Part shown: one piece after another, positions 28,262 to 61,060 of the stretch
How the letters are laid out: every line of letters starts with the position of its first letter
Numbering within the stretch: position 1 is the first letter of the stretch
DNA from: Chitinivibrionales bacterium
GTDB lineage: Bacteria; Fibrobacterota; Chitinivibrionia; Chitinivibrionales; WJKA01
Direction: 5' to 3'
Length of the DNA stretch: 64,000 bases
Assembly: GCA_014728215.1 (NCBI GenBank)
Contig: WJLZ01000080.1
Coordinates: forward strand, 8,755 to 72,754
The notes under the pieces: generated by a model
The model's database searches: none
Told to the model about the DNA's origin: nothing
The model's input: only the letters and a program-made list of their open reading frames with translations
Made by a program: the position numbers and the translations under genes

Positions 28262-28633
28262 TTAATCCCCAAGAATAGACTGCACTGTTTTTATTATATC
28301 ATCTTTGTCAAAAGGTTTTGGTATAACATCATTAAAGCCCAGAGTCATAAGACTTTTAACAGGATTTTTTTCGATAAATGACGTTAATGCGATGACTGGA
28401 ATCGATCGGGTCTCCGTCCCTTTTTTCAGGCGATTTATAAATCGTATGCCGTCCATAACCGGCATCATGATATCGGTAATGATAAGGTCGGGCATATGTT
28501 CCTGTGCGCAGTTGAGCCCGTCAAAACCGTTCAAGGCTGTGATGACTTCATATTTTCTGAACAGAACCACTTCGATAAGATCGAGTGTATCGTGGTCGTC
28601 ATCAACAACAAGGATTTTTTTCTTATTGCTCAT
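28262..28633 (-). CDS. Single-domain response regulator
   Basis: ILVVDDD, LIITDIMMPVMDG, PVIALTS, IPKPF. Confidence 0.93.
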   Translation of the reverse strand: MSNKKKILVVDDDHDTLDLIEVVLFRKYEVITALNGFDGLNCAQEHMPDLIITDIMMPVMDGIRFINRLKKGTETRSIPVIALTSFIEKNPVKSLMTLGFNDVIPKPFDKDDIIKTVQSILGD

Positions 28634-31218
28634 GCATCGCTCTTTCTATACAGCAGAATGCCCAGGAGTAAAAAGATGGCATTTCCCAGCCAGGCGCCGG
28701 CTAAAGGAGGAAGCTGCCCGCTTTTACCAAAAGCCAGGGCAAAGCGCACAATTATCCAGTAGGAAAAAACGATCAGTAACCCTATACCGAAAAGGAGCGC
28801 TCCGCCGCCTTTACCAATTCGCGCAGTTACCGAAATTCCCAGCAGAATGACGATAAAATTCATGAAGGGGTAGGCAATTTTGAAATAGAGATCGGTATTG
28901 TATTTCAGTACCTTCTCACCCCGGCGTCTGGTCTTTTTAATATAATCTTTCAATTCCCAGTAGCTCATTTCTTCCGGAGTCTTGATTCGTACCACCATTT
29001 CTTCGGGAGTGGCATTCAGAATATTGTCCTGAAGGGTATCGAAGGTCATCATGGTTGATGAATCACCCTGAAATTTTCTGATTGTCCCGTTAATAAAAGA
29101 CCAGGCATTGTTGTGATAAACGGATTTTTCGGCATGAATTCGTTGCGTAATCGAATTACCTTCAAATGTTTCTCTCCAGACATTTTTCGCTTTTTGTGGA
29201 AATGTTCTGAATTCCTGAAAACAGTAGATTGTGTTTTTATTGCCGAAATAGTAGAAATTTCTCCGAAAATCTCTCCGTCCGCGGTACACTTTACCCTCAG
29301 CGGCTTTTTCCTGCATTTTAATTTCTTCGAGAAGCTCCCGTCGTTTGACATTTGCTTCCGGAAGAACCAATTCACTGACATAGAAGTTTGCGCCAACAAG
29401 ACAGAGCCCTAAAAACAGGAGAGGAAGGGTTACGCGGCGGATGCTTTTCCCTGCCGCTTTCATGGCAATCAGCTCACTGTTTTTGGCCAGTTTACCCATG
29501 GCGAACATGGAAGAGAGTAGCATGACAACCGGAAAAACGAGTTGTATGATCCAGGGCATGTAATACCAGTAGAAAAGAGCGGTCTGCTGAACCGGAACGC
29601 CTTCAAAACGTCGGGAATTCGAAACATAATCGACCACAACGAAAACCACCATAATTGCAGCAAAAACACCCACCATGTTCCCGACAAAAAGGCGGATTAT
29701 ATAATTGGGAAGGATGCCGATAACATAGCGAATGGCGATAAGCGGTAAAGAGATTATTTTCATGGGCAGACCCAGAACAAAGCGTACGGTTTTAAAAAAG
29801 ACGTTTTGCTTTTCTCCGGCCTCGGTGAACTTATGCCACCACCGTAAAAGGGGTGTCCAGGAGATGAATGTCGTCTCGCGGACCATGCGGATGATCAGAA
29901 AGGCACCGCAGGCGCCCAGAAGGATATTTCCCGACCACATGGCGCTGAAAGGTGACACCACGAGGCGGTCGGCAAGGTTTTCTCCCTTTATCAAAAAGGC
30001 CCAATAGAGGATAAAAAAGAAAATGCTGTAACTTACGGCAACGGTCATTCCACCCCGCCGTGCCATAATGCCGAGGGGAGCACCGATAAGAACAAAGATA
30101 ATGCAGGCAAACGGTATTGCGTATTTTTTATGAATTTCGACCAGATACTGGGCTATTCTTTTCTTTTCACTTTCTATACGGCGAATGATTCGTTCACTCT
30201 CGCGGACAGTACGGTTTTGCGCTACCATTGCATTGCCCCGGGCAGGGGTAAACTGCTTTGCCCAATGCTGAAATGACAGAAGGGAATCCGGGCTGGTGGT
30301 TTGTCGGCCGGATGGTGCCGGGTGGGCGGCCGACAGACTGTCAAAAAAAGCAACAACGGCAAGCGTGGAATCGATCATGCCCGAATGCTGCGCCAGATGG
30401 CCTTTCTTTTTCTTGCGGTTCTGTTTAATATCGTTGAGCATCATCTGGGAGCTTTTTTCACGGTCCCCCCGGTATCTGCTGTCTGTTCTATGAAGGTCAC
30501 TGTCGACATTATTGATAAACAGCACCTGTTTATCAAAATGGCCTACAAAATGCTGTTCCCTGTTGTCACTGCTTATACTGTGGGTCTCGCCGTGATAGAG
30601 TGTCAGACGCAAATAGGCGCCGTCGACGGTTTGTTTAACTTCTCCGGAGTCGGCGATGGTTGTTGAAGGATCTTCACCGGGAACATCGGAAAAAATCTTG
30701 ATGCCTTCCAGCCTTCCGGTCCGGCCGTTGGCCTTCTTCACATAGATTGCGTAATTCTCGAAATCTTTAATTAATACTTTAGGTTCGATAAATGCAGCAG
30801 GTCGTTTCCGTGAAATATCCGACATCAGATTTGCCGTCCGATGGTTGGCGTCGGGAAGAATCAGATTGTTGAAAAAAATCAGGCATATACAGACAACCGA
30901 TGCGGATACAATGACCGGGGCAATCAGATGATAGAGATTGAGTCCTGATGCTTTGATTGCCAGAATTTCGTTATCCGCCGACATTCTCCCAAAGGCCCAG
31001 AGCGTGGCACTGAGGATCGCCATAGGAATTGCCAGCGCAATAATCCATCCAAGATTAATAGCAAAAATTTCAAGAACAATGGCGGCATCAAGGCCCTGAG
31101 AAATAATCTTGTCAAGAATCTGAATCGCATACTGCATTATAAAGATAAAGACAAGAATTGCCAGGGAAAAAAAGAAGGGGAAGATATGTTCTTTAACGAC
31201 GTGACGGTAGAGAATCAT
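28630..31218 (-). CDS. lptF-lptG: LptF-LptG fusion: LPS export ABC transporter permeases in one polypeptide
   Basis: 862 aa uninterrupted ORF with two YjgP/YjgQ units: NEILAIKASG...EIHKKYAIPFAC...GAPLG, then NSELIAMKAAG...SYWEL...KIAYPF...LLGISV. Confidence 0.88.
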   Translation of the reverse strand: MILYRHVVKEHIFPFFFSLAILVFIFIMQYAIQILDKIISQGLDAAIVLEIFAINLGWIIALAIPMAILSATLWAFGRMSADNEILAIKASGLNLYHLIAPVIVSASVVCICLIFFNNLILPDANHRTANLMSDISRKRPAAFIEPKVLIKDFENYAIYVKKANGRTGRLEGIKIFSDVPGEDPSTTIADSGEVKQTVDGAYLRLTLYHGETHSISSDNREQHFVGHFDKQVLFINNVDSDLHRTDSRYRGDREKSSQMMLNDIKQNRKKKKGHLAQHSGMIDSTLAVVAFFDSLSAAHPAPSGRQTTSPDSLLSFQHWAKQFTPARGNAMVAQNRTVRESERIIRRIESEKKRIAQYLVEIHKKYAIPFACIIFVLIGAPLGIMARRGGMTVAVSYSIFFFILYWAFLIKGENLADRLVVSPFSAMWSGNILLGACGAFLIIRMVRETTFISWTPLLRWWHKFTEAGEKQNVFFKTVRFVLGLPMKIISLPLIAIRYVIGILPNYIIRLFVGNMVGVFAAIMVVFVVVDYVSNSRRFEGVPVQQTALFYWYYMPWIIQLVFPVVMLLSSMFAMGKLAKNSELIAMKAAGKSIRRVTLPLLFLGLCLVGANFYVSELVLPEANVKRRELLEEIKMQEKAAEGKVYRGRRDFRRNFYYFGNKNTIYCFQEFRTFPQKAKNVWRETFEGNSITQRIHAEKSVYHNNAWSFINGTIRKFQGDSSTMMTFDTLQDNILNATPEEMVVRIKTPEEMSYWELKDYIKKTRRRGEKVLKYNTDLYFKIAYPFMNFIVILLGISVTARIGKGGGALLFGIGLLIVFSYWIIVRFALAFGKSGQLPPLAGAWLGNAIFLLLGILLYRKSDA

Positions 31219-31467: not shown

Positions 31468-32244
31468 ATGAATAGCAGGCTTCGCCTTTTCAGCATACTT
31501 CAAGTTCCGGTCCTGGTTGCACTTACAGGATGTGCCGGTTCGGCCAAAAATGTGCAAAATGAGATGCTGCTGCCTGAAATTGATGTAGTTCAGGTAAAAG
31601 AAAATTCTGATGAAGCGCTTCGTCTTGCTCAGGAAGCGCAGCTTGATGTTGAGGTGGTAAATACCAAATTGACCGAGATCGATAATAAACTGGTACTGCT
31701 CAATGAAGAAATTTCCAGTGTTTCCATAGCGAAAATTGAAGAATTGGAGAATCGTCTTTCTCTTATTATTGAAGCAGTTAAAGACCTTCAGGCTCAAATT
31801 GATGCGTTGGAGGTGATGCCACGGGTAAAAAGTACCCGAAAACCCAAAGGACCCGCCACTTTTTCAGTTTCATCGCCCGAATATGCTGCCTATCAGAATG
31901 CCCTGCATACATTCAATGCACGGAAATATAAAGAAGCGCGGGTGCTTTTTTCAGAGGTGCTTAAGCAATATCCAAGGGGCAAATATGCCGACAACTGTCA
32001 GTACTGGATAGGCGAGTGCTACTATGCTCTCGGCGATTATGCCCAGGCCATCGCTTCATTCAGCAAGGTTTTTGACCATTCCAACAGCTCCAAAGCCGAT
32101 GATGCGCAGCATAAACTCGGCAAATGTTATCTTAAAATGGGCCAAAATGGTATGGCAAAAAGTGCCTGGAAAAAACTGATCGATCGCTATCCGGGTTCTG
32201 AATATGTCCCACGGGCACAGAAAAGCCTCGTCGAGCTGAATTAA
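31468..32244 (+). CDS. cpoB: CpoB/YbgF-like TPR protein, predicted lipoprotein
   Basis: Lipobox LTGC, coiled coil, then YQNAL...YPRGKYADNCQYWIGECYY...KADDAQHKLG...YPGS TPRs. Confidence 0.8.
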   Translation: MNSRLRLFSILQVPVLVALTGCAGSAKNVQNEMLLPEIDVVQVKENSDEALRLAQEAQLDVEVVNTKLTEIDNKLVLLNEEISSVSIAKIEELENRLSLIIEAVKDLQAQIDALEVMPRVKSTRKPKGPATFSVSSPEYAAYQNALHTFNARKYKEARVLFSEVLKQYPRGKYADNCQYWIGECYYALGDYAQAIASFSKVFDHSNSSKADDAQHKLGKCYLKMGQNGMAKSAWKKLIDRYPGSEYVPRAQKSLVELN

Positions 32245-32417
32245 CTTTTATTTATTTACTCCTCTTTTTGCAAAAAAAGATCCCGAATACCATATCGGGC
32301 CCGGCATGCTGTATTTTATGGTTTCAGCAGTGGCGCCTGTTCTTTCAACTTCGACATCAAGCACTCGATAAACAATAATTGCATATGCATAATCGTTATT
32401 CAGATATGTACAAATTT

Positions 32418-33185
32418 ATGCAGAAAAATACCAATCCGTTCTTTTTGCTTTTGCTCGGTATATTCATCATGATTCCCTGGGGCGGAGCCGAAGCAAAAAA
32501 GATAAAAGAAGCCTATAACTGCTCGGAGCGATTCGAGAAGGTAAAGAAGAAATTCGAAAAGGGCAAGTACGGTGATGTCAAAAACATCTGTGACGACATA
32601 CGGTTGAATTGCCACGGTCATAATGTTATGGATTCGGTGATATATTATCTGGCAAAAGCTCAGATGCTCACCAAGAATCCCGATGAGGCCAAGGTCGAAT
32701 TTCAACAGATTGTCCGGGATTACCCCAATTCTCCTTTTGCCGAGGAAGCACGTTTTCGTATCGGTCAGTGCAGCCTGCTTGATTCAAAGTCATTCGAACG
32801 CGATCAAGCCACTACCAAAGAGGCGATCAGGGAACTGCGTCGGTTTGTTATTTCTTATCCCCAAAGTCCCTTTGCCGACAGCGCGAAGGTGTATTATAGT
32901 CAGGCCATCGAGAAGCTTGCCAAAAAGGAATTTTCCAATGCCAGGTTTTACGAAAAGATTGATGAGTATGAAGCCGCAGTGGTGTATTACAAAGTACTTA
33001 TTAATGAATTTCCCGAATCAAAATATGTTCCTGAAGCCAAATTGAATATGGTCGAAGATCTTATGAAAGTCAATCGGGAAACAGAAGCGCAGGCCATTCT
33101 CGAAGATCTTTTAAACAGCGAGATCGGTAATGAAATTCGCGGCAAGGCTGAAGCATTGAAGGAACGTTTGGGCAAATCCGGGTAA
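32418..33185 (+). CDS. bamD: Outer membrane protein assembly factor BamD
   Basis: TPRs with YPNSPFA, RDQATTKEA, YPQSPFA, KLAKKEFSNARFY pattern of BamD/ComL. Start uncertain (32379-32418). Confidence 0.85.
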   Translation: MQKNTNPFFLLLLGIFIMIPWGGAEAKKIKEAYNCSERFEKVKKKFEKGKYGDVKNICDDIRLNCHGHNVMDSVIYYLAKAQMLTKNPDEAKVEFQQIVRDYPNSPFAEEARFRIGQCSLLDSKSFERDQATTKEAIRELRRFVISYPQSPFADSAKVYYSQAIEKLAKKEFSNARFYEKIDEYEAAVVYYKVLINEFPESKYVPEAKLNMVEDLMKVNRETEAQAILEDLLNSEIGNEIRGKAEALKERLGKSG

Positions 33186-33189
33186 TTGC

Positions 33190-33771
33190 ATGACTCCATA
33201 CGGCGTGTTGGGCGGCAGTTTTGATCCTGTACATAATGGACATCTGGCTATTGCCGACGCTGCAAAAGAACATTGTAATCTTTCAAAAATAATCCTTATT
33301 CCTGCAGGAAATCCCCCTCATAAAGCAACGTCGGTCAAAGCAGAGGCGCATCACAGGCTGGCCATGCTTGAATTGGCCACCGGGCAATCGAATTATCTGG
33401 AAATCTGCGATATTGAAATCATCCGCCCGGGCTTTTCGTACACTATAGATACGCTGCATTTTCTGAAAAATGAGCTGCCCGAACCGGAGATATATTTCAT
33501 AATCGGCTCCGATAATCTGACCGAAATACCCTTCTGGCATAAATATAAAGAAATCATTTCTCAGGCGGTCCTCTGTGTCACGCACCGACCGGGTACTACG
33601 ATGGAAATTCCCCGGGAACTCAGTGATGCAGCCATTGAGACGTTTCCATCGCCGGAACTCGATATCAGTTCATCGCAAATAAGAAAAAATATCTCCGAGG
33701 GACGTACCTATAACCATCTGGTTCCTCCCCCGGTTAAAACATATATCGATCAACATGGGCTTTATCGATAA
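33190..33771 (+). CDS. nadD: Nicotinate-nucleotide adenylyltransferase
   Basis: GGSFDPVHNGH, PPHK, SYTIDTL, IIGSD, ISSSQIR. Confidence 0.96.
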   Translation: MTPYGVLGGSFDPVHNGHLAIADAAKEHCNLSKIILIPAGNPPHKATSVKAEAHHRLAMLELATGQSNYLEICDIEIIRPGFSYTIDTLHFLKNELPEPEIYFIIGSDNLTEIPFWHKYKEIISQAVLCVTHRPGTTMEIPRELSDAAIETFPSPELDISSSQIRKNISEGRTYNHLVPPPVKTYIDQHGLYR

Positions 33772-33782
33772 GGGCCTGTATT

Positions 33783-33989
33783 ATGCAGGAATCACCAGGT
33801 AATAAGAATTCCCAAAGAGAACGGCGACCATTTATCGGCATTCATTTTACGTGCTGTAATGCCTACAACAGGATTTACAAAAACAAAGAGGGAACAGCCT
33901 ATGAGGGGAGTTGTCCCCGGTGTGGGAAACTGGTCCGGGTACCGATCGGTGAAGGCGGTACCGGTGAACGATTTTTTGTCGCCCATTAA
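33783..33989 (+). CDS. Small conserved hypothetical Cys-rich (zinc-ribbon-like) protein
   Basis: 68 aa: RPFIGIHFTCCNAYNRIY...YEGSCPRCGK...GGTGERFF; packed between nadD and amrS. Confidence 0.75.
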   Translation: MQESPGNKNSQRERRPFIGIHFTCCNAYNRIYKNKEGTAYEGSCPRCGKLVRVPIGEGGTGERFFVAH

Positions 33990-34089
33990 ATGGTTTGTAA
34001 ATTTCTGTCTCTCCCCGTTCAAAAAATCATTTGCCGGTTGGACTTATGAATCGAAACATGCTCCGGTTTCATTAATTTATTTTTTTATT

Positions 34090-35181
34090 ATGGCAACACG
34101 CAGAGAAGCTTTAAGAAATGGTCTTGGATTGGCCTGCGCCTTCACGGCGCCTTCGTGTATGGCCGGGAAATCCTCTGTCCCGCATATGGCGATGCATTGG
34201 CAGCCCTTCGGTGATATGGTACAATGTGAGCTGTGTCCCCATGAATGTACACTCGAAAATGGGAAAACCGGTATCTGCCGGGTAAGAAAGAATAAAAACG
34301 GCACACTGGTTACTCTCGGCTATGCTAATCCCTGTGCCGTGCATGTCGATCCTATAGAAAAAAAACCGCTTTACCATGTTCTGCCGGGAGCGCGGGCCTA
34401 TTCGGTCGCTATTGCAGGATGTAATTTCCGATGCAAGAACTGTCAGAACTGGACTATTTCACAGCAGAGTCCGCTGGAGACACGGAATGAACATCTTCCT
34501 CCTCAGAAACTGGTCGAAGAAGCTGTTCGTCGTAAATGCACCGCAATTGCCTACACCTATTCGGAACCGGTCGTCTGGTACGAATGGATGTACGATTGTG
34601 CAAAACTTGCCCGTCAAGCCGGCCTTAAAAACCTCATGATCACTTGTGGATATGTCAATGAAGCACCGCTTCGTCAATTGGCGCAATACATGGACGCCGC
34701 GAATGTCGATCTGAAAAGCTTTGATGATTCGATTTACCGGAAACTCAATGCCGGACGGTTGCAGCCGATTCTCGACACACTGAAACTCGCGAAAAAACTC
34801 GGGATATGGGTCGAAATAACCAATTTAATCGTTCCGCAATGGACCGATGATCCCGCGATGATCGGAAAAATGTGCGATTGGATAACCGCAAATCTGGGTG
34901 ATGACGTACCGCTCCATTTTTCCCGGTTCAGCCCGATGCATAAGCTGGCCCATCTCAGTCCCACACCGGTCGAGACGCTTATGAATGCAAAGGCTGTCGC
35001 CGGTAAAGAGGGATTGAAACATGTGTATGTCGGCAATGTGGCCGTTGATACCAATACCTATTGCCCATCATGTAAAAAAGCGGTCGTGGTACGGCAGGGA
35101 TATCTGGTGAAAGACGTTTCGATCAAAAACGGCGCTTGCAGCGCCTGTGGCGCCGAAATAAGCGGCATCTGGACCATGTAA
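34090..35181 (+). CDS. amrS: AmmeMemoRadiSam system radical SAM enzyme with twin-arginine-like leader
   Basis: CELCPHEC, VDPIEKKPLYH, CNFRCKNCQN (CxxxCxxC), AYTYSEP, AANVDLKSF, PLHFSRF. ATG at 34090 gives MATRREALR; the ORF-track extension to 33859 overlaps the upstream gene. Confidence 0.92.
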   Translation: MATRREALRNGLGLACAFTAPSCMAGKSSVPHMAMHWQPFGDMVQCELCPHECTLENGKTGICRVRKNKNGTLVTLGYANPCAVHVDPIEKKPLYHVLPGARAYSVAIAGCNFRCKNCQNWTISQQSPLETRNEHLPPQKLVEEAVRRKCTAIAYTYSEPVVWYEWMYDCAKLARQAGLKNLMITCGYVNEAPLRQLAQYMDAANVDLKSFDDSIYRKLNAGRLQPILDTLKLAKKLGIWVEITNLIVPQWTDDPAMIGKMCDWITANLGDDVPLHFSRFSPMHKLAHLSPTPVETLMNAKAVAGKEGLKHVYVGNVAVDTNTYCPSCKKAVVVRQGYLVKDVSIKNGACSACGAEISGIWTM

Positions 35182-35222: not shown

Positions 35223-36698
35223 ATGGCCCGAGCGCATAAACTCCACTCTGTTTATCTCAAACTTACAGGAGTACTGCTCATGAGTATGCTTAATTGTGAA
35301 TCTTCACCTGCAGAAGAATCTGTTCGGAAAGCTGTTTTTGCCGGATCGTGGTATGAAGGCGATCCTCAGGCATTACGACACAGTATCGAAAATTATATTA
35401 CCAGTCAAGCCGGAGTGCGGTCTTCGCCGCGGCTGCTTATCAGCCCCCATGCCGGGCACCCCTTTTCGGGACCGGTTGCGGGGAAGGGATATGGCACCAT
35501 GAACAGAGACATAAAAACCGTCATCCTCCTCGGACCGTCACACCGGGTAATGGTGCAAGGCGTCTCTATTCCCGATGTCGATTACTACGAAACGCCTCTG
35601 GGGAAAATACCACTGGATAAAAATATTATTTCGGAACTCCGGAAACACCCAATGGTAGGATCGAACACGCGCGCCCATTCTCAGGAGCATTGCCTGGAAA
35701 TTCAACTCCCCTTCCTCCAGACCGCTATTGATTCCTTTACCCTTGTGCCCATGCTGATGAGCAATGTGGATCCGGAAGCGATCGCCGGATATATCAGGCC
35801 CTATGTCGATGAAACAACACTGGTTGTGGCTTCGTCGGACTTCGCCCATGTCAATAGTGCAGATCAATGCAAAAAGCTGGATAAGCGGTCGATCGAAACA
35901 ATTATGGATCAGGATCCGAACGGCTTTATTGAGGCCTGCGGTGAAACGCCGATACGGGTGCTGCTCTATCTCTCAAAGCACCTTGGTTTGAAACCGATAG
36001 TGCTTGATGCCCGCAATTCGCAGGAGATTGTCAATGCTCCGGAAAGCGGGTATACCGTCGGATATGCTTCAATCGTCTTTGTAAAAAAGGATGAAAACGG
36101 TGGAACGTCCGAAGACAAAGAAAAAAGAGAAAATGAGTCTATCGTTAAAGAGCTGGATGGCGGTGATAAAGCATTTCTGCTCAATCTGGCCCGGAGAGCA
36201 TTTGAAGCCGCAGTTAAGGGTGCGCCGCCCCCCGAGCCGTCCGATATTCCCGACGTAGCGAAGCAGGATGTTGGTTGCTTTGTAACCCTCCATAAGCATG
36301 GCGAACTTCGTGGCTGTATCGGTTATATTGAAGGCATTAAACCGTTGTATGAGGCAATAATTGACAATGCAAAAAATGCCGCACTGAGGGACCATCGCTT
36401 TCGACCGGTCCGCCCGGAGGAGCTCGACGAAATCAAGGTAGAAGTTTCTGTATTGACAAGGCCGGACCCTGTGTCCTACAATGATCCAAGTGAGCTCCTT
36501 AATAAAATCGTCGCCGGCAAGGATGGCATAATACTGAACAAGGGGGGGCATCAGTCAACCTACCTTCCTCAGGTATGGGAGCAGATCCCGGATAAAAAGA
36601 CCTTCCTTGAATATCTTTCCCGCAAAGCCGGCATGCCGTCGGATGGATGGAAAACGGCGGAGGTAAAGCGGTATCGTGCGATTCATTTTGAGGAATAG
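35223..36698 (+). CDS. amrB-amrA: AmmeMemoRadiSam protein B (MEMO1) - protein A (AMMECR1) fusion with lipoprotein-like signal
   Basis: MEMO motifs AGSWY, SPHAG, GPSH, EHCLE, SSDFAH, DACG-like EACG, VGYAS; then AMMECR1 GCFVTL, LRGCIG, EVSVL, TYLPQVWEQ. ATG at 35223 follows AGAGG. Confidence 0.92.
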   Translation: MARAHKLHSVYLKLTGVLLMSMLNCESSPAEESVRKAVFAGSWYEGDPQALRHSIENYITSQAGVRSSPRLLISPHAGHPFSGPVAGKGYGTMNRDIKTVILLGPSHRVMVQGVSIPDVDYYETPLGKIPLDKNIISELRKHPMVGSNTRAHSQEHCLEIQLPFLQTAIDSFTLVPMLMSNVDPEAIAGYIRPYVDETTLVVASSDFAHVNSADQCKKLDKRSIETIMDQDPNGFIEACGETPIRVLLYLSKHLGLKPIVLDARNSQEIVNAPESGYTVGYASIVFVKKDENGGTSEDKEKRENESIVKELDGGDKAFLLNLARRAFEAAVKGAPPPEPSDIPDVAKQDVGCFVTLHKHGELRGCIGYIEGIKPLYEAIIDNAKNAALRDHRFRPVRPEELDEIKVEVSVLTRPDPVSYNDPSELLNKIVAGKDGIILNKGGHQSTYLPQVWEQIPDKKTFLEYLSRKAGMPSDGWKTAEVKRYRAIHFEE

Positions 36699-38631
36699 CG
36701 CTCATCCCCACTCTTTTATTTTTGTTACCGGCTTCTGCAGTATCGGAGTTCAGTGCCTTTTTATACGGGAGGCACTGGCCGTATTTTACGGCAATGAGCT
36801 GATCCTCGGTCTGGTGCTTTCGACCTGGCTTCTCTGTTCAGGTATCGGCAGTTTTATCGGCGCCAAATCGCCAAAATGGGATACCTGGGGTGTCGTGACT
36901 GTTTATGTCTGGGCTGCTGTTGGCGGTATTCTCCTGCTGCGCGCCGGAAGGCTTCTTTTCTCGCCGGGAGAAATTATTTCACCCCTTGCTTCACTGGGTA
37001 TTCTCTCCGTAAGTCAGGGGCCATTTGCCTTTGTTAATGGTTATGTTTTCGGCCGCCTTTCGCAGGCCCGGCATACCGCACCGCATCTTTATCGATACGA
37101 AAACATGGGCAACATCGCCGGCTCGTTGATCGTTTTTCTGGGGGTTGTCCTTTTCTGGAAAAATGCCCTGATCCTTATCGCACTTCTTGTTCCGGTTTTA
37201 TGGCTCTGCAAAAAGAAACCGTGGCTGTTTGCAATCATTGGCGGCGCCTTTGTTTGTATTGCCCTGTTTGATAGTATATCACAGGAATGGAAATATGATG
37301 TCCCCGTTACGAGGATATCCTGCGGCAGGGAGGGCGAGGTTGTCCTTACCGAGCAGCACGGCGATACTGCATGGCTGCTCAACAATACACTGTACCGCTC
37401 TTCTGCCGATGACGCCTTTATCGAGCAGGCAGTGCATATTCCCATGGCGCAGAGGGAGCACGCTCGCCGGGTGCTGGTTATTTTCGATAAAGGGCATTAT
37501 GATGAACTGAAGGCCTACAATCAAAGTGAGGTGGACATAATTGAAACCGAACGGCTCCTTGCACGTAAAGGAAGTATTGTTACTTCACCGGAATCTCATG
37601 CGGCCGGAGGAAAATATGATGTGATTCTTATGGCAGCGGGCATGCCGGAGACCATGGGGAGCAGCAGATTTTATACACAATCCTATTTTACCCGAATGAA
37701 ATCGCTCCTCAGTGATTCCGGAGTCTTTTCGTTCAGCCTTTCCCTCAGCAGTAATTATCTTAACAGGCCGGAGCAGGAAATCGTGCACGTTCTTCACTCG
37801 ACCCTGAATGAAGTATTTAATCGGGTCCTGATTTTTCCCGGTGAGGGATATACCTTTATGGCTTCGGACAGCGCTTTAAAGGCTCGTCCTGAGCTTATGG
37901 TCCAAACACAATTTGTGGGTCCTTATATTATGCCCGCGCTTTCGGATGAAAGAATCGAAAGTGCAAATACATTTTCCGGGAAAGCAACAATAAGCACCAT
38001 CGACAAGCCTGTTGTTCTTATCGCAGGACTTCAACGGTGGATGAAACTGATCGAAGCTCCCGTATGGGGGCTTTTGATAATCCTCGCCCTGGTCATTATT
38101 GCTGGGGTCGCTTTCTTTCCCAAAAAAGGCGAAATGCTTTCCGTAGGATCGAGCGGGTTTACCGCCGGTATCTTTTCGGTGGCCCTTCTTTTGCTCTACC
38201 AGGCAGGATACGGAGCGCTCTACTCACGCATATCGCTGCTGCTCCTGGCACTTACCCTGGGATTTGCCCTGGGAAGTTATGTGCGGAAATTTCCCCATTC
38301 CGATGGAGTTATTGCGGTGTATGTGGTTGTATCGATGGCTCTGTTGACAAAGTGTACGGCCGCTCCGCAACTGCTCTTTTATCTTTTGCACGGGGGCATA
38401 GGATTTTTGTGCGGCGCCCAGTTTGTGACCCGGAAAAACAGTGAAACCGGTATACTCTATGCTGTTGATCTTTTCGGTGGCGTCATCGGTATGGTGTTGT
38501 CTTCTACTGTGCTGGTCCCCATGTTCGGGGTGATGAATGTTGCGCTTGGTCTGGGAGCGGTGAAACTGCTGGTGTGGGGAGCGAATACTCGTTCAATAAA
38601 CCGGGGGCGTCTTTCCACGGGCATGATATGA
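36676..38631 (+). CDS. Polytopic membrane protein with central degenerate spermidine-synthase-like domain
   Basis: N-terminal TMs (QCLFIREAL...GNELILG, YRYENMGNIAGS), central SpeE-like fold (EQAVHIP...RRVLVI...YDVIL...RFYTQSYF...GVF), C-terminal TMs (LYAVDLFGG). GTG start overlaps the amrB-amrA stop. Confidence 0.8.
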   Translation: MRFILRNSAHPHSFIFVTGFCSIGVQCLFIREALAVFYGNELILGLVLSTWLLCSGIGSFIGAKSPKWDTWGVVTVYVWAAVGGILLLRAGRLLFSPGEIISPLASLGILSVSQGPFAFVNGYVFGRLSQARHTAPHLYRYENMGNIAGSLIVFLGVVLFWKNALILIALLVPVLWLCKKKPWLFAIIGGAFVCIALFDSISQEWKYDVPVTRISCGREGEVVLTEQHGDTAWLLNNTLYRSSADDAFIEQAVHIPMAQREHARRVLVIFDKGHYDELKAYNQSEVDIIETERLLARKGSIVTSPESHAAGGKYDVILMAAGMPETMGSSRFYTQSYFTRMKSLLSDSGVFSFSLSLSSNYLNRPEQEIVHVLHSTLNEVFNRVLIFPGEGYTFMASDSALKARPELMVQTQFVGPYIMPALSDERIESANTFSGKATISTIDKPVVLIAGLQRWMKLIEAPVWGLLIILALVIIAGVAFFPKKGEMLSVGSSGFTAGIFSVALLLLYQAGYGALYSRISLLLLALTLGFALGSYVRKFPHSDGVIAVYVVVSMALLTKCTAAPQLLFYLLHGGIGFLCGAQFVTRKNSETGILYAVDLFGGVIGMVLSSTVLVPMFGVMNVALGLGAVKLLVWGANTRSINRGRLSTGMI

Positions 38632-41822: not shown

Positions 41823-42830
41823 TTAAAGAATAATCCCCGTATCAACTCCGCACTTCGGACAACAAGCCCTTTTGTTCCCAGTGGCTGCCCCAAGCTTTTC
41901 GTGGATTTTAGTAAAATATCCGTTACGATCGATCAGAAGAGTGTTGCATGATGGGCACCTGGTGTTGGAGCAATCACCAGACTCCATATTGCCGATAAAA
42001 ACATAATTGAGATACTCTTTTGCAATTTCCCATGCCGTCTTAACTGTTTCTTCGGGTGTGGCCGGATTGTTACTTTTATATCGTGGGAAATACCGGGACA
42101 GGTGAAGTGGCGTATCCTTGCCCAGATTTTGTGCAATATACCGGGCCAGTGCACTAAAATCTTTTTCGGTATCATTTTCGCCGGTAACGACCAGATTGGT
42201 AATTTCCAAATGTGCATGCTTTTTGACTTTTTCGCAACTTGCCAGAACGGGCTCAAGTTTTCCTTTGCAGAGATGGGTATAAAATTCCGGACGCATTGAT
42301 TTGATATCGATATTCATGGCGTCGACAACATTCAAAAGCTCATCAAGCGGTTTCTGCTCCATGAAACCGTTGGTGACCATGACGTTTTTCAACCCCCGCG
42401 CCTTTATTTCAGCGCCGATATTCATGATTGTCTCGAACCAGATAAAGGGCTCTGAATAGGTGTAAGCGATACCCATGCTGCTGCTGGAACAGACTTTTTC
42501 GATTATCGCATCTTCAGGAAACTTCCGAACAGGAAGGGTATCCTGGGAAATCTCGAAATTCTGGCAGAACGAGCATTTGAGTGTACATCCATTTGGTCCG
42601 GTCGAGAAAATTGAAGAACCGGGATAAAAGTGATACAAGGGTTTCTTTTCGACAGGATCAACGGCCAGAGATACAGGCCTGCAGTAATTGAGTGAATAAA
42701 GAATACCGTCCCTGTTCTGCCGGGTCAGGCAGACACCTCGTTTGCCGTCGGTTAATAAGCAGTGATGGGGACAGAGTTCGCACCGAACCTTTTTATCGTC
42801 GAGTGGGGTAGAGTAGGATGCCTTTTTCAT
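41823..42830 (-). CDS. amrS: Second AmmeMemoRadiSam radical SAM enzyme (no leader)
   Basis: CELCPHHC, VDPVEKKPLYHF, CTLKCSFCQN, AYTYSEP, AMNIDIK, PLHLSRYFP. Confidence 0.93.
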   Translation of the reverse strand: MKKASYSTPLDDKKVRCELCPHHCLLTDGKRGVCLTRQNRDGILYSLNYCRPVSLAVDPVEKKPLYHFYPGSSIFSTGPNGCTLKCSFCQNFEISQDTLPVRKFPEDAIIEKVCSSSSMGIAYTYSEPFIWFETIMNIGAEIKARGLKNVMVTNGFMEQKPLDELLNVVDAMNIDIKSMRPEFYTHLCKGKLEPVLASCEKVKKHAHLEITNLVVTGENDTEKDFSALARYIAQNLGKDTPLHLSRYFPRYKSNNPATPEETVKTAWEIAKEYLNYVFIGNMESGDCSNTRCPSCNTLLIDRNGYFTKIHEKLGAATGNKRACCPKCGVDTGIIL

Positions 42831-42886: not shown

Positions 42887-43573
42887 TTACTTTGTATATT
42901 TGGTTTTCACCCCTATCCTCTCGCAATACGTGTATATCGGACAAATATCGCACCGGGGATTTATCGGCCGGCACAGATGTTGTCCGAAAGAGACAAGATA
43001 GGAGTTAATGCCCAGCCAGAATTTTTTTGGAAGGATTTCTCTGAGTTTCATTTCGGTTTCAAAGGGGGTTTTTGTCTGCAGGTATCCCAGACGGTTAACG
43101 ATCCGGTGCACATGAACATCAACGCATATCGCCGGTTTATTGAAACCGATAACCACCACAAGATTGGCGGTTTTTCGCCCTACGCCGGGAAGCTGAACGA
43201 GTTCTTCAACCGTATCCGGGACTTTGCCCCCGTAGAGTTCATTCAGCGCCCGGGGAAGTTTTTTTAAGTGGCGCGCCTTGTTCTTATAAAATCCAACCGG
43301 ATAGATTAATTGCTCAAGCTTTCCAACCGGTATTTTTGCCAGATCTTCGGGCGTATGGACCACCGAAAAGAGTTTGTTTGATGCTGCGGTAGTGGTTTCA
43401 TCCTTGGTACGGGCGCTGATAATGGTCGAAAGCAGCACTTTGAACGGATCCCGTGTCTGTGCCTGGACCAGATCGACCACCGGCATCCGGTGTTTTTTAA
43501 ATTCCCTTTCCAGGATAGAGTATACCGCCTGAATATCCGTTTTCTTATTCATTCCCATTGTATTTTTGCCCAC
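42887..43573 (-). CDS. nth: Endonuclease III
   Basis: LLSTIISARTKD, LPGVGRKTAN (HhH), VDVHVHR, CRPINPRCDICPIYTYC Fe-S cluster. Confidence 0.95.
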   Translation of the reverse strand: MGKNTMGMNKKTDIQAVYSILEREFKKHRMPVVDLVQAQTRDPFKVLLSTIISARTKDETTTAASNKLFSVVHTPEDLAKIPVGKLEQLIYPVGFYKNKARHLKKLPRALNELYGGKVPDTVEELVQLPGVGRKTANLVVVIGFNKPAICVDVHVHRIVNRLGYLQTKTPFETEMKLREILPKKFWLGINSYLVSFGQHLCRPINPRCDICPIYTYCERIGVKTKYTK

Positions 43574-58080: not shown

Positions 58081-59004
58081 ATGACTCGGAAAAAAGATGA
58101 GAAAAGGGTATTTCATGAGCAGCTTAACGACAATTTCGGATTTTATTATACAATAAATGAGACCCTTTACCGTGGAAAGACCGCATTTCAGGATATTGAA
58201 CTTGTCGATACCCCCGAATTCGGTAAGGTACTGTTGCTGGATAATATTACGCAGGTTGCAGAGAAAAATGATTATCAATACCATGAACCGATGGTACATC
58301 CGGCGCTGTGTTGCCATCCCAAGCCGCAGGATATTCTCGTTATCGGTGGCGGTGACGGTGGTATACTTAAAGAGGTTTTAAAATATCCAACGGTACGGAA
58401 AATTCATTTTGCGGAACTGGATAGTGATGTAGTCAATTTTTCCAAAAAGTATCTCTCTTCAATGAACAAGAATTCCTTTGACCAGCCCCGGGTACGGATG
58501 AATTTCACCGACGGCCGTGCGTTTGTTGAAAAAAGGAATAAGGAATTTGATGGGGTCATTATGGATATGACTGATCCCTTCGGACCGTCAAAAATGCTCT
58601 ATACCAAAGAATTTTTCCAGGCGGTGAAACGATCGCTCAAGAATCCCCGGGGGGTTTTCGTTATGCATTCCGAGTCGCCGATAACCCGCCCGGTAGCATT
58701 TAATTGCATAAATAAAACATTAGGTAAAGTGTTTACTCATGTTAATATCGTATATATTTATATACAGATGTATGCTGTATTGTGGTCAATCGCTGTTTGT
58801 TCCGATGAAACCGATATTTCGAAGACAAAGGCAGCGGTAATAAACAGAAGGCTTGAGACGTATGGTATTACCAATAATAAGGTCTATACCGGAGCGACTC
58901 ATCATGCTATGCTGGCGGCCTATCCTTATATCGAAGATATACTTAAAACACGGGCGCCGATCATTACTGACAGCAAACCGGATTTCCCCGACAGTCATAT
59001 TTGA
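58081..59004 (+). CDS. speE: Polyamine aminopropyltransferase, copy 1 (DMTDP type)
   Basis: TAFQDI, FGKVLLLD, YHE, IGGGDGG, ELD, TDGRAF, DMTDP, LYTKEFF. Confidence 0.93.
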   Translation: MTRKKDEKRVFHEQLNDNFGFYYTINETLYRGKTAFQDIELVDTPEFGKVLLLDNITQVAEKNDYQYHEPMVHPALCCHPKPQDILVIGGGDGGILKEVLKYPTVRKIHFAELDSDVVNFSKKYLSSMNKNSFDQPRVRMNFTDGRAFVEKRNKEFDGVIMDMTDPFGPSKMLYTKEFFQAVKRSLKNPRGVFVMHSESPITRPVAFNCINKTLGKVFTHVNIVYIYIQMYAVLWSIAVCSDETDISKTKAAVINRRLETYGITNNKVYTGATHHAMLAAYPYIEDILKTRAPIITDSKPDFPDSHI

Positions 59005-60184: not shown

Positions 60185-61060
60185 ATGAGTACTGAAATGA
60201 ACTATCAACAGTCGGAGGGAACATCGATCTGGCTGGAAAATCTTGTTGACGGTACCGCCGGATTGAGAATTAAAACCCGTCAGGCGGTATCCTGTTCCGC
60301 AAGTCCGTTCCAGAAAATCGAGGTATTCGATACCTATGCATTCGGCCGGATACTCGTTCTCGGCGGGGTTATTGTTCTTACCGAAAAGGATGAGGGTATT
60401 TATCACGAAATGATTACCCATCCGGCCATGCTTATGCATTCGTCACCGGAGAACGTATGTATTATCGGCGGCGGTGACGGTGGTTGTTTGCGGGAAGTCC
60501 TGAAACATGATTGTGTTAAAAAAGCGACGGTTGTTGAAATCGACGAGCAGGTAAAGGAGACGGTTGCACAGTATTTTCCAGGTTTGGCCGAGGGATTTTC
60601 CGACGCCAGGACCGAAATCATTGTTCGTGACGGGTTCGATTATTTAAACAATTCGGATGAGAAGTACGATATAATAATTGTCGATTCTTATGATCCCGGC
60701 GGACCGGTGCAATCGCTCGAGACTGCCTCATTCTTTGCGGTTGCCGCAGAACGGCTTAATAAAAAGGGTGTCGCGGTGTTTCAGACCGATTCTCCCGTAC
60801 GCCGCGGGGATTTTTTCAGACAGGCCGCCCGCAATATCGCATCATACTTTACGGTATCACAACCCTATCTTTGTATGGCGCCGTCATTCCCGGGAGGAAT
60901 ATGCAGTTTTGTTATTGGCGCCGGCGATAATGTTGCTGTTTCCGGATTCAATCGTGAACGATATAATGCACTTGCCGGTACATGTTGCTATTATAACGAA
61001 AAGGTGCATTCCGGAGCATTTTTACTTCCAGAAAATATAGCAAAGTTACTTGAGTTATAA
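60185..61060 (+). CDS. speE: Polyamine aminopropyltransferase, copy 2 (DSYDP type)
   Basis: SPFQKI, FGRIL, YHEMITH, IGGGDGG, VEID, DGFDY, VDSYDP. Confidence 0.92.
   Translation: MSTEMNYQQSEGTSIWLENLVDGTAGLRIKTRQAVSCSASPFQKIEVFDTYAFGRILVLGGVIVLTEKDEGIYHEMITHPAMLMHSSPENVCIIGGGDGGCLREVLKHDCVKKATVVEIDEQVKETVAQYFPGLAEGFSDARTEIIVRDGFDYLNNSDEKYDIIIVDSYDPGGPVQSLETASFFAVAAERLNKKGVAVFQTDSPVRRGDFFRQAARNIASYFTVSQPYLCMAPSFPGGICSFVIGAGDNVAVSGFNRERYNALAGTCCYYNEKVHSGAFLLPENIAKLLEL

Follow-up and report, generated by a model that had tools for sequence, protein, structure and literature searches.

The window analysed here is a stretch of 64,000 nucleotides from a Chitinivibrionales bacterium of the phylum Fibrobacterota (contig WJLZ01000080.1). 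It contains a gene for a membrane protein with a degenerate spermidine synthase (SpeE)-like domain, and the three defining proteins of the AmmeMemoRadiSam system are encoded immediately upstream. These are the radical S-adenosylmethionine (SAM) enzyme AmrS (TIGR04337), the Memo protein AmrB (TIGR04336), and the AMMECR1 protein AmrA (TIGR04335). The product of the membrane protein gene is called the window protein below. The features of the locus are as follows (TM, transmembrane helix; MFS, major facilitator superfamily; dcSAM, decarboxylated SAM; K/R, lysine and arginine; AF2, AlphaFold2).

34090..35181, plus strand: amrS, AmmeMemoRadiSam radical SAM enzyme (TIGR04337, 354.7 bits against a cut-off of 220)
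35223..36698, plus strand: amrB-amrA fusion, Memo and AMMECR1 (PF01875, 1.4e-51; PF01871, 4.2e-49; TIGR04336; TIGR04335)
36676..38631, plus strand: MFS-like, degenerate SpeE-like membrane protein gene (651 amino acids, GTG start)
36706..37287, plus strand: N-terminal membrane block, residues 11–204, TM1–6 repeat and TM7 (AF2 helices, K/R alternation, hhalign)
37288..38010, plus strand: SpeE-fold domain, residues 205–445 (Foldseek, SpeE profile hits in the PDB, K/R topology)
37480..37497, plus strand: remnant of the Gly-rich dcSAM/SAM loop, I269-F-D-K-G-H274, two residues shorter than GGGDGG
37615..37647, plus strand: remnant of the catalytic D-S-x-D-P segment, Y314-D-V-I-L-M-A-A-G-M-P324, both Asp lost and Pro kept
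38062..38619, plus strand: C-terminal membrane block, residues 463–648, TM8 and TM9–14 repeat (AF2, K/R, hhalign)

The three genes form a co-directional, overlapping string, in which the membrane protein gene shares its first 23 nt with the end of amrB-A. The gene that follows is encoded on the opposite strand; therefore, the unit consists of amrS, amrB-A, and the membrane protein gene. The GTG start is credible because the resulting N-terminus (V-R-F-I-L-R-N) matches those of the homologues in the alignment. A comparison of N-termini likewise indicates that amrS probably starts at 34090 and not at 33859, the start chosen by the open reading frame (ORF) finder 77 codons 5' of the conserved M-A-T-R-R-E. 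Such a false extension (33859–34089) in an automatic annotation could mask the signal sequence of AmrS described below. The start of AmrB-A is probably M30 of the ORF opening at 35136.

An AF2 model of the window protein, built with 21 homologues as input (pLDDT 84.9, pTM 0.83), has seven long helices at residues 11–204, four beta-strands and a Rossmann-type core at 211–397, and seven helices at 463–648. The original prediction of a SpeE-like domain between two multi-TM blocks is thus borne out, with 7 TM on each side. An hhalign comparison of the two membrane blocks found residues 8–180 to be homologous to residues 484–645 (probability 96.3%, E = 1.5e-9, 145 columns). Therefore, the membrane part consists of two 6-TM repeats, TM1–6 and TM9–14, and TM7 and TM8 are an added hairpin that displays the domain. 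TM7 is predicted to cross to the outer side of the membrane, and TM8 to lead the chain back to the cytoplasmic face. The model and the repeat support a membrane part that is an internally duplicated, MFS-like 6+6 TM bundle. Whole-chain Foldseek searches gave weak matches to SLC45A4, NorA, and PepT (E 2.5e-3 to 1e-2, root mean square deviation about 20 Å). MFS proteins with 14 TM and an extra central helix pair are generally known. They have in common with the window protein two homologous 6-TM halves and two central helices, but the window protein carries a 240-residue enzyme-fold domain in the outer loop of the central hairpin and has no MFS match at the sequence level.

A SpeE fold without the aminopropyltransferase motifs

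The central domain of the model matched SpeE structures in the PDB at a Foldseek probability of 1.0, with target TM-scores of 0.51–0.63 (1uir, 7xih, 1inl, 6bq2, and 2i7c). The two-part fold of SpeE (PF01564, TIGR00417; 1inl, 1uir, 7xif), N-terminal beta-hairpins followed by a Rossmann core, is present in the window protein, where it is predicted to be extracytoplasmic. Aminopropyltransferases were also the only matches in searches of PDB sequences with the single sequence and with the family profile.

The motifs were mapped by profile alignment to the SpeE proteins of Thermotoga maritima (1inl) and P. calidifontis (7xif). LIIGGGDGG of T. maritima SpeE pairs with LVIF--DKG of the window protein, so that two glycines are deleted and the third is replaced by Phe. 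DVIIIDSTDP pairs with DVILMAAGMP. In the alignment with P. calidifontis SpeE, KYDVIIMDLTDP pairs with KYDVILMAAGMP. The GGGDG dcSAM-binding loop is therefore absent from the window protein and is replaced by I-F-D-K-G-H, and the D-S-x-D-P segment with the catalytic Asp is replaced by A-A-G-M-P (G-x-G-x-P in the family). Both replacements had been predicted from the window alone, and the SpeE alignment places them exactly at the predicted coordinates, IFDKGH for GGGxG at 37480–37497 and YDVILMAAGMP for D-S-x-D-P at 37615–37647. A stretch of about 15 residues containing the D-G-R motif of the nearest relatives is also deleted in the family of the window protein. The predicted landmarks EQAVHIP, EVDIIE, RFYTQSYF, and GVF are retained in the window protein and are conserved in the family alignment. 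Of the SpeE features, the E-x-x-x-H-x-P helix, the Y/F-D-V-I and G-V-F strands, the acid that closes beta-2, and the Pro of D-S-x-D-P remain, whereas the GGGDG loop, the Asp pair of D-S-x-D, and the D-G-R segment are missing.

The window protein does not reach the curated cut-off of any of four SpeE-type hidden Markov models (HMMs). The scores are far below: 16.2 against 22.9 bits for PF01564, 27.9 against 249.55 for TIGR00417, 28.5 against 260 for NF002010, and 27.3 against 472 for NF002956. The profile alignment to spermidine synthase found degenerate motif positions, and NF037959, the 'fused MFS/spermidine synthase' model, gave no match at E <= 1. The insertion of the domain between two 7-TM blocks further distinguishes the protein from SpeE, as does its predicted extracytoplasmic location, where dcSAM is not expected. 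The window protein presumably cannot make polyamines, and SAM- or dcSAM-dependent transferase activity of its SpeE-like domain is very unlikely. Binding of a ligand at the classical site is doubtful because the protein lacks the Gly-rich loop and the D-G-R region. The original prediction had proposed a protein that is not an aminopropyltransferase and acts as a transporter or scaffold for the AmmeMemoRadiSam system, possibly by binding SAM, dcSAM, or methylthioadenosine. Its first part agrees with the family-wide loss of motifs, the HMM scores below the cut-offs, the linkage to AMMECR1, and the 6+6 TM architecture; the proposed binding of these three ligands found no support.

Polar residues near the old active site, namely E250, H254, D271, E290, R331, and Y333, are still conserved. 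The SpeE-like domain might therefore still be an enzyme or a ligand receptor with a pocket rebuilt around these six residues, either acting on the substrate or product of the AmmeMemoRadiSam enzymes or binding a by-product, such as 5'-deoxyadenosine or methionine, for its re-import. The former active-site residues are invariant or nearly so, and several (E250, H254, R331, and T334) are common to the partners with intact motifs. D271 pairs with the Asp of GGGDG in the HMMER alignment. In Rossmann methyltransferases, the acid that closes beta-2 makes contact with the ribose, and here this residue is the invariant E290; this assignment uses the AF2 strand boundaries and a MAFFT alignment with the intact relatives, and the local HMMER alignment is four residues off. 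However, the loop is two residues shorter and has lost its glycines, D-G-R is deleted, small or hydrophobic residues stand in place of both Asp of D-S-x-D-P, and the long stem branch of the family fits a loss of the ancestral constraint. We consider a remodelled pocket unlikely, though worth keeping in mind.

Two intact speE genes had been predicted at 58–61 kb of the window, and both carry GGGDGG and D-x-x-D-P.

58081-59004: canonical speE (GGGDGG, DMTDP)
60185-61060: canonical speE (GGGDGG, DSYDP)

A polyamine transporter coupled to polyamine synthesis was also considered for the window protein. This reading was rejected since the acidic residues that bind polyamines have been lost and the genuine polyamine operon is at a different place, 58–61 kb.

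A family of one order and its widespread relatives

A word-indexed search found about 45 proteins of 627–683 amino acids with 38–65% identity. Those with named sources are from Chitinivibrionales or Fibrobacter metagenome-assembled genomes (MAGs). The degenerate motifs are family-wide, x-D-x-G-[HQEYF] and G-x-G-x-P-x-[TN] among 21 to 41 homologues in this range of identity. In an alignment of 21 sequences, the corresponding segments read L-V-I-F-D-x-G-H and Y-D-x-I-x-L-G-x-G-x-P-x-T, and about 70 columns are invariant. A member of this tight family is encoded, always in single copy, in about 38 genomes of a sample of 201 from Fibrobacterota. All of these belong to the order of the window, in which five families are represented. 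One other match in the sample contains an internal stop, and three others run over two frames or two contigs. The family occurs solely in Chitinivibrionales-type MAGs, within a single order of Fibrobacterota.

The loss of the canonical motifs and the long stem branch of the family would also suit a decaying gene, a pseudo-enzyme heading for loss with no function of its own. However, about 38 genomes from five families of the order have an intact frame, about 70 columns stay invariant even at 38% identity, and the position and translational coupling of the gene are conserved. Decay therefore appears highly improbable. The motif changes are conserved across the family of about 45 proteins; therefore, the window gene is not a pseudogene, and the reading of ORF 36676–38631 as one was rejected on this conservation.

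In an exhaustive profile search, the tight family gave full-length scores of 566–965 bits, followed by a gap and then a very large set of relatives beginning at about 320 bits. This set, 2509 proteins below 1e-30, shows the full-length architecture of the tight family. Relatives of 660–730 amino acids gave full-length profile matches and are built like the window protein. Six of ten tested relatives exceeded the NF037959 cut-off of 40 bits (45.6–80.3 bits), and four scored 25.8–37; all ten matched NF002956 below its threshold. Relatives above the NF037959 cut-off came from the profile search (P0088, P0096, P0105, P0119, and P0123) and from the word search (P0049 and P0051). The window protein is to be compared with the uncharacterised NF037959-type and PRK03612-like membrane SpeE proteins of about 700 amino acids, which have a 6TM-TM-SpeE-TM-6TM arrangement and the same K/R bias. 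The NF037959-type proteins have in common with it Q26, R31, G-N-E, W51, Q509, Y516, D598, an N/S-R-F-Y-T motif, and the linkage to AmrS, Memo, and AMMECR1. They score at or near the model's cut-off and keep S-G-G-x-x-G, V-E-[LI]-[DN]-P, a D-[GA]-R segment, and usually [DNA]-x-P-[DEx]-P. The tight family instead has x-D-x-G-[HQEYF] (F-D-K-G-H in the window protein), [ST]-E-P, and G-x-G-x-P, and it has lost D-G-R through a deletion of about 15 residues.

Membrane residues common to the tight family and the AmmeMemoRadiSam-linked intact relatives are Q26, R31, G39-N40-E41, W51, G98, Y139, G145, G149, Q509, G513, Y516, D598, G601, and G605. In the domain, they are E250, H254, E277, Y281, D315, P324, R331, T334, F337, Y361, and P388-G389. 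In a maximum-likelihood tree, the tight family forms one separate clade (SH-aLRT 100) on a long stem. Comparison with the outgroup suggests that the canonical motifs were lost in an ancestor of this order-level clade.

The genome of the window also encodes a 976-residue paralogue on contig C117 (locus L023, 796–3693) with an MFS_1 match (1.9e-9), a Spermine_synth match above the cut-off (43.8 bits), and C-terminal TPR repeats. It belongs to the fused MFS/SpeE-like superfamily, bears the motifs, and does not adjoin AmmeMemoRadiSam genes.

The genomic neighbourhood is conserved together with the protein. AMMECR1 is encoded directly upstream of the family gene in all seven homologue contigs that were looked up, from different assemblies, and immediately 5' of it in 14 of 14 distinct loci found by tblastn. 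In the seven contigs it is either fused to Memo or separate, and the radical SAM gene usually lies further upstream. The outer flanks are unrelated between family loci. By this conserved adjacency to AmrA, AmrB, and AmrS, the window gene probably encodes an accessory fourth component of the system.

A scan of metagenomes with an AmrS alignment yielded 80 loci, 23 of which extend at least 4 kb on both sides. A fused MFS/SpeE-like gene was present in 20 of these 23, mostly within about 1.5 kb and up to about 5 kb from amrS. The usual order is Memo, AMMECR1, MFS/SpeE, and AmrS, with AMMECR1 in 18 of the 23. The partners outside the tight family keep the Gly-rich loop (SGGxxG, VE[LI][DN], DxR). 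In other Fibrobacterota genomes, including one from the window's own family, an intact-type protein adjoins AmrS or Memo. Because the related AmrS loci usually hold an MFS/SpeE-like protein with the Gly-rich loop, the window protein represents a degenerate version, specific to its lineage, of a fourth component that recurs. Some linked partners have 810–860 residues, more than the usual 700 or so, and carry an extra domain (L042, L048, L049, L051, L052, L062, L067, L073, L086, and L103). In a distant relative, P0086 (919 residues), the C-terminus weakly matches a NapH/MauN-type ferredoxin.

Topology and export signals

To assign the sidedness of the membrane protein, K and R were counted in each loop of 38 family members with the AF2 helix boundaries. 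The N-terminus, the loops 2–3, 4–5, 6–7, 8–9, 10–11, and 12–13, and the C-terminus have a combined mean of 14.05 K/R, and the alternate loops have 0.47. The soluble domain between TM7 and TM8 is on the K/R-poor side. The same bias was found in 92 relatives with intact motifs (12.6 against 1.0). By the positive-inside rule, these counts predict that the SpeE-like domain faces outside the cytoplasm.

The partner proteins carry signals that point in the same direction. AmrS begins with a twin-arginine translocation (Tat) signal, MATRREALRNGLGLACAFTAPSCMAG. In six orthologues the N-termini follow M-x-x-R-R-[ED]-x-L-[KR] and then a hydrophobic stretch, with R4, R5, and L8 invariant, and TatC is encoded in the genome. 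AmrB-A has a lipoprotein-like signal, MARAHKLHSVYLKLTGVLLMSMLNC, and Sec-type or lipoprotein-type signals are present on the Memo and AMMECR1 orthologues, also where these are separate genes (L002 and L006). The signals suggest that AmrS and AmrB-A are exported. In this respect the locus differs from AmmeMemoRadiSam as otherwise defined, by three soluble proteins; here each has an export signal, and there is a constant fourth, membrane component. Many of the metagenomic AmrS proteins have R-R or K-R in a [KR]-R-x-F-[LI]-K motif followed by a hydrophobic stretch. A regular expression for Tat signals matched 45 of the 80 AmrS loci, a number that under-calls, since most of the others have [KR]-R-x-F-[LI] and a hydrophobic stretch by eye. 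Within loci L042–L104, many AmrS relatives have K-R and not R-R in the Tat-like motif (for example, S-K-R-E-F-I-K), and a W-K-W-S-[KR]-E-A segment is conserved between the signal and the catalytic core.

The genome encodes two further AmrS paralogues above the TIGR04337 cut-off. Both are signal-less, starting at the catalytic domain, and neither adjoins AmmeMemoRadiSam genes or this membrane protein gene. One is in the window.

41823-42830, minus strand: second AmrS-type radical SAM gene (TIGR04337 295 bits, 335 amino acids, no signal peptide)

This paralogue adjoins an HhH-GPD glycosylase gene (42887–43573), with no Memo or AMMECR1 gene beside it. The third copy, on contig C151, adjoins MlaE/MlaF-like ATP-binding cassette genes.

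The signal and topology calls are sequence-based, which leaves room for a cytoplasmic arrangement, in which the AmmeMemoRadiSam proteins are not exported and the window protein is a membrane-anchored inactive SpeE paralogue or a polyamine-related transporter that merely shares the operon. To our knowledge, dcSAM/SAM chemistry takes place in the cytoplasm, where every characterised radical SAM enzyme is also found, and our literature search found no paper on a periplasmic radical SAM enzyme; both points favour this arrangement. However, K/R alternates perfectly over 14 helices (14.05 against 0.47). R-R is invariant in the AmrS orthologues, and the paralogues without a signal in the same genome are also those without the partner. 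Furthermore, the Sec or lipoprotein signals occur on Memo and AMMECR1 even where these are encoded separately. We therefore regard a cytoplasmic arrangement as improbable. The prediction that the domain faces the periplasm alongside signal-bearing AmrS and AmrB-A goes beyond the original prediction.

Possible role and neighbouring genes

We think it probable, though well short of certain, that the window protein is the membrane subunit of an AmmeMemoRadiSam module that is exported and faces the periplasm, and that it combines a non-catalytic domain with an MFS-like transporter. The 6+6 TM bundle would hold the SpeE-fold domain at the periplasmic side of the inner membrane by means of the TM7/TM8 hairpin between its halves. 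The protein may descend from the widespread fused MFS/spermidine synthase-like proteins that accompany Tat-signal AmrS in many anaerobes and have kept the Gly-rich loop. In one order of Fibrobacterota, the domain would have lost this loop, the D-G-R segment, and both Asp of D-S-x-D-P, and the degenerate protein would then have stayed under purifying selection. The membrane bundle may move a small molecule between the cytoplasm and the periplasm for the exported enzymes, and the dead domain may dock AmrS, the AmrB-A lipoprotein, or both at the outer mouth of the transporter. We infer transport and docking because the membrane bundle with its shared polar residues and the domain scaffold are the parts kept under selection. 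A catalytically dead domain kept under selection has parallels in dead partner paralogues of polyamine enzymes; the prozyme of S-adenosylmethionine decarboxylase in trypanosomatids is a generally known example.

SAM is the leading guess for the cargo, as the exported radical SAM enzyme would otherwise be without its co-substrate. It is attractive because this enzyme needs SAM and the ancestral domain has a SAM-type loop. In its specific form, the MFS-like half would be a SAM exporter, or a SAM/5'-deoxyadenosine exchanger, that feeds the periplasmic Tat-exported radical SAM enzyme. In most lineages SAM would be handed to the protein's own outward SpeE-like domain, and in the present order the domain would serve solely to dock AmrS and the AmrB-A lipoprotein. 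We offer this version tentatively, as one that may well be wrong. Export or presentation of the AmmeMemoRadiSam substrate, or re-import of a by-product, fits the data equally. The loss of the Gly-rich loop also means that, in this order, the operon can fulfil its role without classical SAM binding by the domain.

Several points weigh against a periplasm-facing module with a non-catalytic domain on a transporter. The MFS likeness of the window protein consists of its fold and internal repeat, and the HMM search at E <= 1 gave no Pfam MFS match, as it gave none to NF037959. The topology is derived from the positive-inside rule and AF2 helix boundaries, and the lipobox of AmrB-A in the window, M-L-N-C, is non-canonical. 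The conserved polar residues of the old active site, discussed above, leave some probability for a changed catalytic or ligand-binding function. If the domain of the intact relatives binds SAM for AmrS, the loss of the loop here argues against such binding as the essential function common to both groups. Finally, we know of no bacterial SAM exporter of such a kind.

AMMECR1 and MEMO1 are the eukaryotic relatives of AmmeMemoRadiSam proteins. They are conserved from archaea to humans and linked to disease. Burroughs et al., in 2019, are said to have linked Memo contexts to the modification of nucleotide bases and isoprenoids. Our literature search found no functional study on AmmeMemoRadiSam, fused MFS/spermidine synthase, or periplasmic radical SAM proteins. 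Radical SAM chemistry is assumed to be cytoplasmic, and an outward-facing membrane partner suggests how an exported version could be supplied. A lineage without the motifs but with a conserved partner helps to tell whether the transporter and scaffold or the transferase chemistry is the essential part of this partner. If the SAM exporter and docking version is true, the dead variant separates the transport and docking role from the transferase role and may provide a handle on the function of Memo and AMMECR1. The analysis also corrects automatic 'spermidine synthase' labels, which several homologues bear in the Joint Genome Institute (JGI) annotation.

The surroundings of the unit contain further genes. 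Two BamD/YfiO-like TPR lipoprotein genes and a nadD-like gene of the cytidylyltransferase fold (31468–33771) precede amrS. This larger syntenic block also precedes amrS in loci L001, L003, L004, and L007. Further upstream, on the minus strand (28630–31218), an ORF of 862 amino acids has two LptF_LptG matches (PF03739, in two stretches) and is apparently a fusion of LptF and LptG. A gene for a small DUF2809 membrane protein lies between amrS and amrB-A in one relative (locus L005, 1606–2001).

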